8,544 bases of DNA from a virus (taxonomy: Duplodnaviria > Heunggongvirae > Uroviricota > Caudoviricetes): IMG/VR virus record IMGVR_UViG_2602041669_000023, one strand, 5' to 3'. A program made the position numbers. The first letter of the stretch is position 1. Every line of letters starts with the position of its first letter. Positions 3,001-8,544 of this stretch are shown here, piece by piece.

Positions 3001-6000
3001 TGGAGAGTAAATATCTTGCGCAATATGGAGAGATAATTGGCTCGAGTCTGAGATATCGTGGCTATATCCCAGAAATAAGCCTTGTGAGTAATCATCTCTG
3101 TTTTCATGTTTATTGCCATAAATATCATTAAGTATTGGTTGAAACTTCCCTGCATCATCATTTGCTAATGATAATGCAAGGCTGTTCGCGATAGCTGAAC
3201 ACGTGGTAAATGACAGAGCAATAAAGACGCCAGCGATGACACTTTTTTTCATATGTTATTGTCTTCCTTTTTTTTGAATGGTGCGCGTATTTTACATACA
3301 TGAGTTTGTAATACAAGGTGCGTAATCAATATGATGTTTTATAATTGCGTGAGACAATTGATTTATTCGTTTTTTATTGCGGTTTTTATTATCTTTTAAT
3401 GTAACGGTGTTTTTATTAAGTGTGTTTGCGTGGTGTTTTATGTTTTTTATAATTTTTATTTTATTAAATTTAAAAGCATTAGTAATGGCTATTCTATATA
3501 GCAATATAAGAACTGTTACAAAAAAAGGGGGGGGCAATTACAGGTAGTTATGGATGATGAGTGAAACAGATATTGGAGAACCGGGGAATGAATGATGTCT
3601 GAGTCTTATATATCAGAACTCCTTCGCTGTCGCTGGGGGCTCGTGTGCTTATGTCGTTTCCCCGATTCGGTTTTGAACGATTACCGAATGTTGAAGAATT
3701 ATGCCAAAATATAGAAAGGATTTACTGCATGAATACCCAATATTTACAGTATGTTCGTGAGCAACTTATGGCAGCTACTGCTGACTTGAACGGAGCAACG
3801 AAAGGCCAGCTCGAAGCCTGGCAGGAGCATGCACAATTTGATACTGGTACATACAAACGAAAGAAGCCGCGCATTCTGGATGTGGTAACTGGCAAGATGA
3901 TTACGCTGGATAATACGCCGACTTCCGGTAAGCAGTCGTACGCAAAAGGTTCATCCATTGCTTTGGTCAGCCCGGTTGAATTCTCAACCTCTTCATGGCG
4001 CCGCGCGGTTTTGTCTCTCGATGAACATCAGAAAGCATGGTTGCTTTGGTGTTACAGCGAAAGCGTTCGATGGGGGCATCAGGTCACCATAACGCAATGG
4101 GCATGGAGCGAGTTTAAAGATTTGTTAAGTAACAGAAAAATTGCAGGTAAGACACTGGATCGCCTGAAGACGTTAATCTGGCTGGCTGCACAGGATGTGA
4201 AGAGCGAACTTGCAGGGCGTGAGGCCTATGAATACCAGACACTGGCATCATTGGTGGGAGTGACAACAAAAAACTGGTCCGAGACATTTACTGAACGCTG
4301 GGTTGCAATGAAGCACATTTTTCTACAGCTTGATAGTGATGCTTTATTGCTTGTGACGAGAACACGTTCAAAACAAAAGGCAGCATTTTTACAGCAAAAT
4401 ATTGCAAAACTGGATTAAAAGCCATATACTTCATGCAAATTTGGTATGTTGTAAAAAATGTATAAACCCGCTGCCGAGTGGGTTTTTTTTATGCCCTGAG
4501 TTGTACTTGTACGGTAAACATGCTGGCTGCTATGTAATAGAGTTTTTTTAGCCTGTAACCTCTTGACGGCATTGAATTGCTTTTGTTATGAGTTGTAAGC
4601 CAATGTTATCATCTTGTATTGGGGTGGTTATGAAGGATGGTGCGCTGCTCAGGAGTTCTTCACTTTTTATTGCCTACATGGGATGCCTTGGATGGGGGAG
4701 TGCTTATTTCTATGGATGGGGTACTTCTTTTTACTACGGCTTCCCATGGTGGATTGTAGGTGCAGGTGTTGATGATGTTGCCAGAAGTTTATTTTTTGCA
4801 GTTATCGTCATTGCTATATTTCTTATCGGTTGGGGTATTGGTGTTGTATTCTTTTTCGCAGTGAAAAGAAAACATTCTATGCAAGAGCTAAATGTATTTC
4901 GCCTTTATTTTGCTGTGGAATTATTGTTTGTGCCGGCAATTATTGAGTTTTCTATATTGAGACAGAAGATTCAGGTACCTCTTTTGCTACTGTCAGCAGC
5001 GATTGCGCTGGCGGTTACAATTTCGATAAGATCTTATGGGCGATTTTTATCGGTATCATGCTTCTATGATAAGCCATTTATAAAAAAACATTTTTTTGAG
5101 ATTGTGATGATTGCTTTTGTGGCATATTTCTGGCTTTTTTCATTTCTGACAGGATATTACAAACCACAGTTTAAGAAAGAATATGAAATGATTAATTATA
5201 ATGATGGTTGGTATTATGTTCTTGCTCGTTATGATAATTGTCTGGTTTTGTCTACTTCTTTCAATGCAGGTAGTAAAAGGTTTGTCATTTATCAATCAGC
5301 ACAAGATAAGAATCTTCAGGTTGATATTGTAAGGACCAGAATTTAATTGGCTGCATAAATAATATTTTAAGTTGCAAGTTGGCTATTCGTAGGAATAGAA
5401 CCTTAGGCATGCTGAATGCGTTTTCTGAACATTGTTTTATAAACTGTGTCTGCTTGCTGTTGTGATCCTGCTTTTAGTGATGGTGATGATGGATTTCACC
5501 AGCAGGATAATGTTGGTACTGACTGATGGCGCTCTGGTCTGCGGCATTGTGGTATTGCTGTGGCCGATGATGAAAGAACAGAATGAATAATTCTTGACTT
5601 TTTTGTTTACTGTTTATTAAAAAATCAACCGCATGGTGAATCCTCCTTGGAGGGGCTAAATGATCGAGTTTTAAGGGCACGTAGCGAGTTCTGTTTGATC
5701 ATTGCAGAACTTAGCGGGAGGCGCCATGCGTACATCACTAATGTTATTTCCTTCTATCATTTTCCTTGTGAGTTCTGGCTGCGCATGGCGCGGCCTTTTT
5801 TTTATGACCTGCCACTGGCAGATGGTCATCCTGTGATTTGATTCCGGTTCCGGCTTTTTAACTCTGTTCCTGTACACGGGAGAAATTCTATGTCGATTAA
5901 TCGTTATGATATTGGTTACAAGAAGTACCACGTATTGTGTTGAGATAGAAAGCATGGTGCCAGAGGTAAATGCAGCAGCATAATAAAAAAGAGCCAGCGC

Positions 6001-8544
6001 AGAAGAGAACGGGTAAAAGAGTCTGCGCTGGCGTGGGGATATTCCCCGTGGAGAAATGATATGTAACACACATCGGGAACCTTTCTATATAAACATTATC
6101 ATTATTGTCAATCATAACAGTCAGGTATTATGACGTTTATGCATCAGGGCCATCAGGAATTAACTGGTGGCTTTTTATTGTTGTCAGCTTCCGGATAACG
6201 GGAGACGGGGTATGTACCAGATGGAAAAAATAACAACAGGTGTGTCATACACCACGTCAGCGGTGGGGACGGGATACTGGCTACTGCAGTTGCTGGACAA
6301 AGTCTCCCCATCCCAGTGGGTGGCAATAGGCGTATTGGGTAGCCTGGTGTTTGGCTTGCTGACGTATCTGACAAACCTTTATTTCAAGATTAAAGAAGAT
6401 AAGCGTAAGGCTGCGAGAGGTGAATAATGTCGCCATCATTACGCAAGGCTGTTGCTGCTGCTATTGGTGGTGGGGCTGTTGCCATAGCGTCTGTGCTCAT
6501 CACTGGTCCGAGTGGTGACGATGGCCTGGAAGGTGTCAGCTACATACCATACGAAGATATCGTTGGCGTATGGACTGTATGTCACGGACACACCGGAAAA
6601 GACATCATTCCCGGTAAAACGTATACCGAAGCAGAATGCAAAGCCCTCCTGAATAAAGACCTTGCCACGGTCGCCAGACAAATTAACCCGTACATCAAAG
6701 TCGATATACCGGAAACAACGCGCGGCGCTCTTTACTCGTTCGTTTACAACGTGGGCGCTGGTAATTTCAGAACATCGACGCTTCTTCGCAAAATAAACCA
6801 GGGCGATATCAAAGGCGCATGTGACCAGCTACGTCGCTGGACATACGCTGGCGGTAAGCAATGGAAAGGCCTGATGACTCGTCGTGAGATTGAGCGTGAA
6901 GTCTGTTTGTGGGGGCAGCAATGAGCAGGGTAACCGCGATTATCTCCGCTCTGGTTATTTGCATCATCCTCTGCCTGTCATGGGCTGTTAATCATTACCG
7001 TGATAACGCCATCGCCTACAAAGAGCAGCGCGATAAAGCCACATCCATCATCGCTGATATGCAGAAGCGTCAACGTGATGTAGCAGAACTCGACGCAAGA
7101 TATACAAAGGAACTTGCTGATGCTAACGCGACTATCGAAAGTCTCCGTGCCGATGTTTCTGCTGGTCGTAAGCGCCTGCAAGTCTCCGCCACCTGTGCAA
7201 AGTCAACGACCGGAGCCAGCAGCATGGGCGATGGAGAAAGCCCAGGATTTACAGCAGATGCTGAACTCAATTATTACCGTCTCCGAGGTGGAATCGACAA
7301 GATAACCGCGCAGGTTAACTACCTGCAGGAATACATCAGGACGCAGTGCTTAAAATAATTTTAATTTCACTGAAATTTAACAAGTGACTTTCAGGAAAAT
7401 GCCTCGCAGATGCGGGGCATTTTTGTACCGGTATTTCACCGCGCACCGCAGCGCACAATAAACACCGAACCTGACCCTTTGGAATGGGCCTTTGAGGATA
7501 CCAGTTAGTGCTGGCGAGCCTCGGTGGGCTGGTTTCCTGTGCGGCAAAGGTTCATTTCAAAGAAGCAGGCAACGCCATGAATGAATTAATTGCGAATCAT
7601 GACTTCGACTTTCGCCAGTTAGTTACCGCAGCAGAAGGTCAACCGGTAACTGACACCTTCCAGATTGCCAGGGCATTTGGTAAACGCCATCAGCATGTGA
7701 TTAGGGCTATTAAATGTTTGAGATGTTCTGAGGAATTCTCGACAACCCATTTTGGGGCCGTCGAGAAAATCAATGACTTAGGGATTTTTGACAAGAAACA
7801 GATTTACTACCGCATGGACTTTAGTGGCTTCGTTATGCTGGTTATGGGATTTAACGGGGCAAAAGCCGATGCTGTTAAAGAAGCCTATATCAATGCGTTT
7901 AACTGGATGTCAGCAGAACTCCGTAAGTACAGCGAAAGTTATGAAGCAGAACGTAACGCCGTAATGCTGGAGTACATGAAAGAGAAGGATGTCGCCAGCA
8001 TGTCAGGCCGTTTGCTCAATCGCTGGGGGCGAGTGGGGGACTGGGGAAAATACCGCAGGATACTCTTTCTGGCATACGAACACTGGCTTTTAACGGAGGA
8101 GCTCAGGTTCAGATGGGGAGCACTATTGTTACAATACGTTCTGTCTTTTTAGGCTTCTTTATGGGAAGTGTAAGCCCTGAAGGATTATCAGAGAGAGCTT
8201 TACGAACTGCATTGAATAATGTTAATCGTCTTGAACGCGACCTTAATGGAGGGCTATCCGGCCGCCAGATTTTAGCAAGTATACCCAGCCCGTATGCTTC
8301 TCCACCTCGTCCTTCTGTAATGCAAACAGAGTTGGTGTTAGAGCAAATAGAAAAATGCTCATTTAATGTTAACTCGTCATCTCTGAGGGCGACTGAAGAG
8401 GCATTAACATGCCCGATTACATTATGCATCCCTGAGCATGGTGTGATTATGAGAAATGCTGGAGATTCAGATGTATGTACTTTATATGATAAAGAATCAT
8501 TAAAACATCTTGTTAACACAAGTTCACCTCATCCTCTGAGCTGA

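Follow-up and report, generated by a model that had tools for sequence, protein, structure and literature searches.

The stretch of DNA analysed here, hereafter the window, comprises 8,544 nucleotides (nt) of the Caudoviricetes record IMGVR_UViG_2602041669_000023 and is 100% identical to part of prophage Sp3 (Sp3/CP-933K) of Escherichia coli O157:H7, the Sakai coordinate being the window position plus 895595. The gene order of Sp3 in Sakai is Q, a membrane-protein moron (ECs_0816), a DUF3927 gene, EcOnc32, a phage 21-type holin, the endolysin RrrD and Rz. This work concerns the minus-strand small RNA (sRNA) gene between the DUF3927 gene and the holin gene, which is very likely the gene of EcOnc32, an Hfq-binding, trans-acting, base-pairing sRNA of this lambdoid prophage. 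Its parts are as follows.

5985-6077, minus: EcOnc32 transcript with a predicted 5' end, supported by an Hfq UV-crosslinking (CRAC) peak, by fragments from crosslinking, ligation and sequencing of hybrids (CLASH), by a covariance model of EcOnc32-type variants (5983-6074, 114 bits) and by a match to the Rfam model of the sRNA Esr41
6106-6111, minus: -35 hexamer TTGACA, invariant in all EcOnc32-type variants and also found in the Esr41 promoter
6088-6106, minus: Fur-box-like sequence AATAATGATAATGTTTATA across the promoter spacer between -35 and -10, a 15/19 match to the consensus GATAATGATAATCATTATC
6084-6089, minus: -10 hexamer TATAGA, after a 16-nt spacer; TATAAA in stx2-linked variants
6058-6074, minus: 5' stem-loop SL1, GAUGUGU-GUU-ACAUAUC, 7 base pairs (bp), predicted fold
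6048-6064, minus: seed ACAUAUCAUUUCUCCAC, anti-Shine-Dalgarno, comprising the SL1 3' arm and a single-stranded linker; the sRNA half of the entC and ECs_1655 chimeras
6035-6047, minus: internal hairpin SL2, GGGGA-AUA-UCCCC, predicted fold; counterpart of GGGG-UAUU-CCCU in Esr41
5993-6032, minus: intrinsic terminator hairpin with an 11-bp stem and the 18-nt loop CUCUUUUACCCGUUCUCU, predicted fold
5985-5990, minus: U6 tract, likely the Hfq proximal-face binding site and the RNA 3' end, with a CLASH junction directly after UUUUUU

EcOnc32 was reported as a CRAC peak at 901574-901662 on the minus strand of prophage Sp3 in O157:H7 Sakai (Tree et al. 2014, Mol Cell 55:199, PMC4104026 Table S2), which converts to 5979-6067 on the minus strand of the window. 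In that table it passed five of five CRAC experiments, has a predicted Rho-independent terminator and gave a northern band of ~112 nt (PMC4104026). Among the entries of Table S2 examined, its area under the curve (6.5e7) lies below that of AgvB1 alone, and it is one of the strongest orphan Hfq signals in enterohaemorrhagic E. coli (EHEC) in that part of the table (PMC4104026). Waters et al. 2017 (EMBO J, PMC5286369, Table EV7) list it again among their RNase E-CLASH hybrids, and the EcOnc32 halves of the chimeras, ACATATCATTTCTCCACGGGGAAT, ACCCGTTCTCTTCTGCGCTGGC and TTCTGCGCTGGCTCTTTTTT, match the minus strand of the window base for base at 6064-6041, 6014-5993 and 6004-5985. The covariance model built from the variants matches the Sakai locus at 901578-901669, minus strand. 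The 166 bases around the sRNA locus are 100% identical in hundreds of O157:H7, O55:H7, O111 and other E. coli chromosomes, and the feature is present in 603 of 5426 complete E. coli genomes (~11%), with no copy on a plasmid.

These data establish EcOnc32 as an actual minus-strand RNA that is bound by Hfq in vivo (published CRAC) and ends at the U6 tract. The first-pass annotation of this DNA, made from the sequence alone, had proposed a minus-strand, Hfq-type sRNA of ~95 nt, a proposal supported by the CRAC peak, the ~112-nt northern band and the CLASH reads; the transcript it predicted is thus on record, its 3' end at 5985 backed by a chimeric read. Its remark that no named sRNA matches is out of date, given the catalogue name EcOnc32 and a reciprocal sub-threshold match to Esr41. 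The gene has been known from Hfq crosslinking and northern blotting since 2014 and apparently was never named or studied further; because the RNA is already on record as EcOnc32, the novelty of the locus itself is low. In the literature searched, we found no main-text mention of EcOnc32 or of the neighbouring EcOnc13, EcOnc32 being known from supplementary tables, and neither a name beyond the catalogue label nor a start site, regulator or validated target for EcOnc32. Searches for ECs0817 and the locus tags ECSP_0850 and Z0957 returned one unrelated paper, which mentions Z0957.

For the 95-nt RNA the predicted folding energy is -34.9 kcal/mol; shuffled sequences give -15.8 +/- 2.9 kcal/mol (z = -6.6). 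Two of its hairpins had been described before and were found in place: the 11-bp GC-rich inverted repeat, with stem arms GCCAGCGCAGA and UCUGCGCUGGC at 6032-6022 and 6003-5993 followed by UC and U6 (5990-5985), and the internal GGGGA/UCCCC hairpin at 6047-6035. The 5' region, formerly taken to be single-stranded, instead forms a 7-bp hairpin (6074-6058), and the unpaired part is a 10-nt linker that separates SL1 from the GGGGA hairpin. One CLASH chimera has its junction after ...CUGGCUCUUUUUU, directly past the sixth U, which places the RNA 3' end at 5985. With its 18 nt, the loop of the terminator is unusually long, and it is pyrimidine-rich; it is kept in stx2-linked variants, is shorter in a variant type from IMG/VR contigs (L036 type), and might offer a further site for pairing or for contact with a protein.

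The promoter TTGACA-N16-TATAGA, already named in the first-pass annotation, was confirmed on the minus strand at 6111-6084; the window has a single copy of it, and 200 dinucleotide shuffles have none. A generic promoter scan found sites no more frequent here than in shuffles and skipped this promoter because its -10 hexamer lacks the final T. The same scan gave a weaker alternative, CTGACT-18-GATAAT (6124-6095), which would start the RNA near 6088. We infer that EcOnc32 is transcribed from TTGACA-N16-TATAGA and starts near 6074-6077, or at about 6088 if the alternative promoter is used; the expected lengths are 90-93 nt and ~104 nt, respectively. The gene thus has the promoter of its own, with a predicted start site, and the Rho-independent terminator with U-tract that are expected of this class of sRNA. 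Since promoter, seed and terminator are kept in divergent relatives, the feature lies far beyond chance.

At gathering thresholds, Rfam reports no family anywhere in the window. In a permissive scan, the whole Esr41 model (RF02676) aligns to 5983-6072 on the minus strand (32.3 bits, E = 3.6e-4), so the covariance search suggested in the first-pass annotation is negative at the thresholds and yields Esr41 below them. Esr41, also catalogued as EcOnc14, is an Hfq-dependent sRNA of SpLE1 that represses chuA, cirA and bfr and affects flagellar genes and those of the locus of enterocyte effacement. In the reverse direction, a covariance model made from six EcOnc32-type variants only picks up the true Esr41 (32.8 bits, E = 5.7e-5) and its Shigella copy (28.9 bits). 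The L036-type variant, with GGGGUAUAUCCCU and the shorter terminator loop, reaches 47.5 bits against the Esr41 model and is regarded as an intermediate for that reason.

EcOnc32 and Esr41 have the core CA(U)UUUCUCCA(C/U)GGGG(A/U)AU(A)UCCC(C/U)(A/C)CGCC(A/G)GC in common, and the predicted folds of EcOnc32 show the Esr41 arrangement of a 5' hairpin, an unpaired U-rich stretch, a GGGG/CCC hairpin and a terminator with U-run. The likeness extends to the TTGACA promoter, the U-rich anti-Shine-Dalgarno stretch (UUUCUCCA), the GCC(A/G)GC terminator, Hfq binding and CLASH partners among iron-acquisition genes. The two differ in the terminator loop (5-7 nt in Esr41 versus 18 nt in EcOnc32), in the seed flanks (ACAUAUCAUUUCUCCACGGGG in EcOnc32 versus CAUCACAUUUUCUCCAUGGGG in Esr41), in the Fur-box-like sequence, which the EcOnc32 promoter has and the Esr41 promoter does not, and in location (SpLE1 beside iha versus a prophage late region).

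A MAFFT alignment of Esr41 and EcOnc32 misaligned the 5' hairpin and was replaced by a model-guided alignment, which is biased towards structure. In this alignment of 10 distinct relatives, 93.9% of the cells pair, against 88.7 +/- 0.9% in column shuffles and 29-55% with slid partners. Five pairs are altered on both sides, four of them in SL1 (four of its seven pairs), and these changes amount essentially to one split between two clades. We therefore treat the covariation as support and not as proof, because the alignment was fitted to the model and the changes mostly separate two clades.

Esr41 proper lies at 1,344,826 and the EcOnc32 locus at 897,450 of the same genome, the former in SpLE1 beside iha; EcOnc32 does not share the location downstream of iha in SpLE1 (O-island 43/48). 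Because Esr41 proper is elsewhere in the same genomes, EcOnc32 is a second locus and not Esr41 itself. A degenerate pattern covering both types, searched in 185,579 species-representative genomes, was found only in E. coli and Shigella, both times in the Esr41 type, and it was found in 71 IMG/VR contigs; judged from these sequences, the Esr41/EcOnc32 family is narrow. With reciprocal sub-threshold model matches, a common three-hairpin architecture and an intermediate variant, EcOnc32 appears to be a diverged relative of Esr41. No published statement of this kinship, or of an Esr41 homologue or paralogue, was found in the literature searched.

The seed is invariant in six of seven EcOnc32-type variants. 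Four CLASH partners are on record for EcOnc32, two of which, entC and ECs_1655, are informative. In the entC chimera, the seed is joined to ECs0632 706302-706362 (four reads, composite score 4.4, -20.5 kcal/mol; PMC5286369 Table EV7); ECs_0632 is entC, and the fragment spans the Fur box through GUGGAGGAUGAUAUGGAU, covering the Shine-Dalgarno sequence and the start codon. By comparison, Esr41 scored 4.1 with chuA, 3.1 with cirA and 4.2 with bfr, all of them interactions that compensatory mutations validated (Waters et al. 2017, PMC5286369). The ECs_1655 chimera has two reads; the start region of the gene, GGAGAAAUGAUAUG, is complementary to CAUAUCAUUUCUCC over 14 nt without a mismatch. ECs_1655 encodes a 60-amino acid (aa) KGG-repeat (YciG/YmdF-like) protein of prophage Sp8 (Sakai 1,655,300-1,655,482; locus L007). 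The published ECs_1655 CLASH read has two mismatches to the Sp8 copy, and a paralogue may be the true partner. Separately, one low-scoring CLASH read links the terminator loop to the 5' untranslated region of ECs4065. Duplex energies were predicted with the 5' 32 nt of each sRNA (kcal/mol):

entC: EcOnc32 -21.7, Esr41 -14.3
ECs_1655: EcOnc32 -28.9, Esr41 -18.6
chuA: EcOnc32 -13.4, Esr41 -20.9
cirA: EcOnc32 -12.2, Esr41 -21.2
bfr: EcOnc32 -12.1, Esr41 -17.4

Each sRNA is predicted to form the stronger duplexes with its own CLASH partners, EcOnc32 pairing with chuA, cirA and bfr 5-9 kcal/mol more weakly than Esr41. In chuA and cirA, the Esr41 seed UUUUCUCCAUGGGG pairs with CCUCAUGGAGA; the window has UUUCUCCACGGGG in place of that seed. 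The seed flanks of EcOnc32 and Esr41 differ, and therefore so do their predicted and observed partners: the two sRNAs have an anti-Shine-Dalgarno core in common and have diverged in specificity. Pairing of the EcOnc32 seed with mRNAs encoded elsewhere is supported by the entC and ECs_1655 chimeras and by the duplex energies, its effect on expression being a prediction. The seed would pair over the ribosome-binding site, block translation and recruit RNase E, so that the targets would be repressed. With the common core UUUCUCC and different flanks, EcOnc32 and Esr41 may regulate different members of the iron-acquisition regulon.

The 15/19 Fur-box match in the promoter is the only one in the window, and 4.5% of shuffled windows hold one anywhere. 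The stx2g-linked variant, whose promoter has diverged, also has a 15/19 match, whereas the Esr41 promoter has only 12/19. The high EcOnc32 CRAC signal came from cultures in MEM-HEPES (PMC4104026), which is a low-iron medium (PMC7547250). Together with the entC partner and the Fur-box-like sequence, this signal suggests an iron-responsive sRNA. Fur would repress the EcOnc32 promoter, and the RNA would accumulate under iron scarcity. A possible Fur-controlled promoter and partners in iron metabolism would liken EcOnc32 to RyhB, to which it has no sequence similarity. RyhB, a Fur-repressed sRNA of the core genome, supports enterobactin production; EcOnc32 pairing over the Shine-Dalgarno sequence and AUG of entC predicts the opposite, repression.

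Two further features of the window flank the EcOnc32 gene.

6212-6427, plus: class II (phage 21 S-type) holin, the first gene of the lysis cassette (Pfam Phage_holin_2_1, E = 1.1e-32; RefSeq)
5601-5806, plus: sRNA of the PasD/EcOnc13/STnc100 family, convergent with EcOnc32 (Rfam STnc100, 37.7 bits, sub-threshold, E = 1.4e-6)

The EcOnc13 CRAC peak corresponds to 5737-5787 of the window and the published PasD northern probe is identical to 5764-5787; the authors of PasD equate it with EcOnc13. The terminator at 5777-5795, followed by T8 on the plus strand, is the 3' end of this PasD/STnc100-type sRNA and not, as it had been labelled, tR'. A better candidate for pR'/tR' follows gene Q: a promoter-like TTGCAA-17-TATACT (4402-4430, plus) that overlaps the end of Q, and a 9-bp hairpin with a T-run at 4464-4485. 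The convergent arrangement recurs: of 14 related loci, 12 have a supra-threshold STnc100 gene facing the EcOnc32-type gene. Convergent sRNA pairs at the moron site were reported in Sp3, Sp5, Sp9, Sp10 and others (Tree et al. 2014, PMC4104026), and matches to the Esr41 model are frequent near PasD (Zhu, Shabalina and Storz 2026 preprint); the EcOnc32/PasD-type convergence fits both.

In Stx2g and Stx2e/i/k-type prophages, the interval from stx2B to the holin gene holds relatives with 80-90% identity to the window. The stx2-linked EcOnc32-type genes are directly downstream of stx2B and each faces a supra-threshold STnc100 gene (L002, 2508-2601; L003, 2503-2595; L004, 2502-2581). The L004 copy has neither the 5' hairpin nor the promoter and may be decaying. 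The intact genome of phage Evi carries a 98.8% identical copy of the EcOnc32 locus with slot and orientation kept. In the window, the interval from the EcOnc32 promoter to the Shine-Dalgarno sequence of the holin gene contains an 11-bp hairpin followed by UUUUUAUUGUUGU (6146-6174, plus), ~40 nt before the holin start; this hairpin falls within a segment that aligns with the stx2g prophage and may mark the 3' end of an sRNA or serve as a second terminator on the plus strand. Further upstream, lpxR (lipid A 3'-O-deacylase; 2293-3252, minus) is a moron between a truncated antiterminator fragment and the YlcG/Q genes (RefSeq, identical genomes).

Known prophage sRNAs of the same slot were compared with EcOnc32. 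PasA and PasC of enteropathogenic E. coli E2348/69 measure 79-85 nt and depend on Hfq (Pearl Mizrahi et al. 2021; Zhu, Shabalina and Storz 2026 preprint). Like EcOnc32, they occupy the minus-strand slot bounded by the holin gene and the gene ahead of the lysis cassette and are linked to PasD; homology to EcOnc32 extends over the outer stem of the terminator, GCCAGCG..CGCUGGC, and the 3' flank AUUAUGCUGC. Their bodies and seeds differ, with no sequence relation to EcOnc32 (EcOnc32 model E = 0.18-0.24), and PasA was equated by its authors with EcOnc51/52, not with EcOnc32. An identity of EcOnc32 with PasA or PasC was rejected, as only the terminator and 3' flank align with the E2348/69 copies and the model E-values are 0.18 and 0.24. 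An AsxR-, AgvB-, IpeX- or DicF-type identity was rejected for want of model matches.

As an alternative role, EcOnc32 could act mainly in cis: transcribed just upstream of the holin gene and antisense to the late, Q-dependent transcript, it could damp the late and lysis genes, its trans targets being incidental. The damping could come from transcriptional interference, or the RNA could base-pair with the late mRNA leader, to which it is fully complementary, and RNase III might then cut the duplex. The gene is indeed 135 nt upstream of the holin start, on the strand opposite to Q, the morons and the lysis cassette, and its slot and orientation are kept in Evi and the stx2 phages, with an STnc100/PasD-type gene always convergent. 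The best-conserved part, however, is the anti-Shine-Dalgarno seed and not the whole antisense stretch, and CLASH recovered trans partners at ribosome-binding sites. Sp3 is moreover defective (its integrase is pseudogenised), yet the RNA is among the strongest orphan Hfq signals, and the relative Esr41 acts in trans from a non-phage island. We consider a cis role unlikely.

A role as an anti-sRNA that titrates a core-genome sRNA instead of mRNAs is suggested by AsxR and AgvB, which occupy the same prophage slot, were shown to be anti-sRNAs and belong to the convergent pairs at the moron site (Tree et al. 2014, PMC4104026). Like EcOnc32, both are prophage-encoded and Hfq-bound and face an sRNA of the plus strand at the moron site that follows pR', and AsxR is located downstream of stx2 in Stx2a phages as the EcOnc32-type variants are in stx2g and stx2e/i/k phages. 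The conserved long, pyrimidine-rich terminator loop would also suit a sponge. AsxR and AgvB are, however, 51-60 nt long and act on sRNAs (FnrS, GcvB) and not on ribosome-binding sites, whereas EcOnc32 has 90-105 nt with an anti-Shine-Dalgarno seed. Sequence and model similarity is lacking: the AsxR (RF02703) and AgvB (RF02702) models match nothing in 5600-6300 up to E 10. None of the four recorded CLASH partners of EcOnc32 is an sRNA. A sponge function is very unlikely on these grounds.

RefSeq annotates a coding sequence over this region, ECs_0817 / WP_012578864.1 (132 aa, hypothetical; 5671-6069, minus), in Sakai and in PGAP genomes; it overlaps EcOnc32 and is antisense to the PasD-type sRNA, and a 72-aa open reading frame (ORF) spans 5897-6115. 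That either of them makes the region protein-coding is scarcely credible. ORFs overlapping EcOnc32 have no supra-threshold Pfam match, neither start is preceded by a Shine-Dalgarno sequence, and translation would have to run through the intrinsic terminator that ends the RNA. The 137-codon open frame shrinks to 6-62 codons in close relatives and is broken in every relative examined, even in one whose only differences are a substituted base in SL1 and an extra T in the terminator T-run. The lack of a credible ORF noted in the first-pass annotation therefore holds, and ECs_0817 / WP_012578864.1 is probably a spurious gene call.

That the locus is a chance promoter-like sequence beside the terminator of neighbouring genes, as the poor yield of the generic promoter scan and the hairpin common to the PasA and PasC terminators might hint, is hardly tenable: the published CRAC, northern and CLASH data already contradict it with an Hfq-bound RNA and a northern band, promoter, seed and three helices are conserved, and the hairpin has no plus-strand T-run and therefore cannot terminate the upstream plus-strand genes.

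For the function of EcOnc32 as a trans-acting sRNA we propose, tentatively and aware that it may well not hold in full, that it is a Fur-controlled, phage-borne paralogue of Esr41 that represses entCEBAH (enterobactin) and a prophage stress protein under iron scarcity. Several points weigh against the main reading of the locus, EcOnc32 as an Hfq-binding, trans-acting sRNA with the promoter, targets and Fur control described above. The northern band of ~112 nt is longer than the predicted 90-93 nt, and the start could be near 6088 via CTGACT-18-GATAAT; the -10 hexamer TATAGA is without the conserved final T. The Esr41 match of 32.3 bits is far under the RF02676 gathering score of 102 bits. The delta-hfq column for EcOnc32 is empty in Table S2 of PMC4104026. 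The putative regulatory links to entC and ECs_1655 consist of four and two chimeric reads in a supplementary table, and the candidate Fur box is a consensus match. A Fur-repressed sRNA that represses a Fur-repressed biosynthesis gene would also be an odd circuit, yet Esr41 too represses Fur-regulated uptake genes.

The interest of an sRNA already catalogued lies in its kinship with Esr41, in the entC and ECs_1655 pairing buried in supplementary data and in the Fur-box-like promoter, which together give a testable hypothesis of function; in addition, a likely spurious RefSeq coding sequence, ECs_0817 / WP_012578864.1, is flagged. If confirmed, EcOnc32 would be a second prophage sRNA in control of EHEC iron uptake and an example of one sRNA scaffold diversifying its seed after horizontal transfer. 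If the proposal is true, Esr41 and EcOnc32 would divide their targets between them as a family of two, and lambdoid prophages, including the Stx2e/g/i/k-type prophages with relatives downstream of stx2, would rewire the host's choice of iron-acquisition route.

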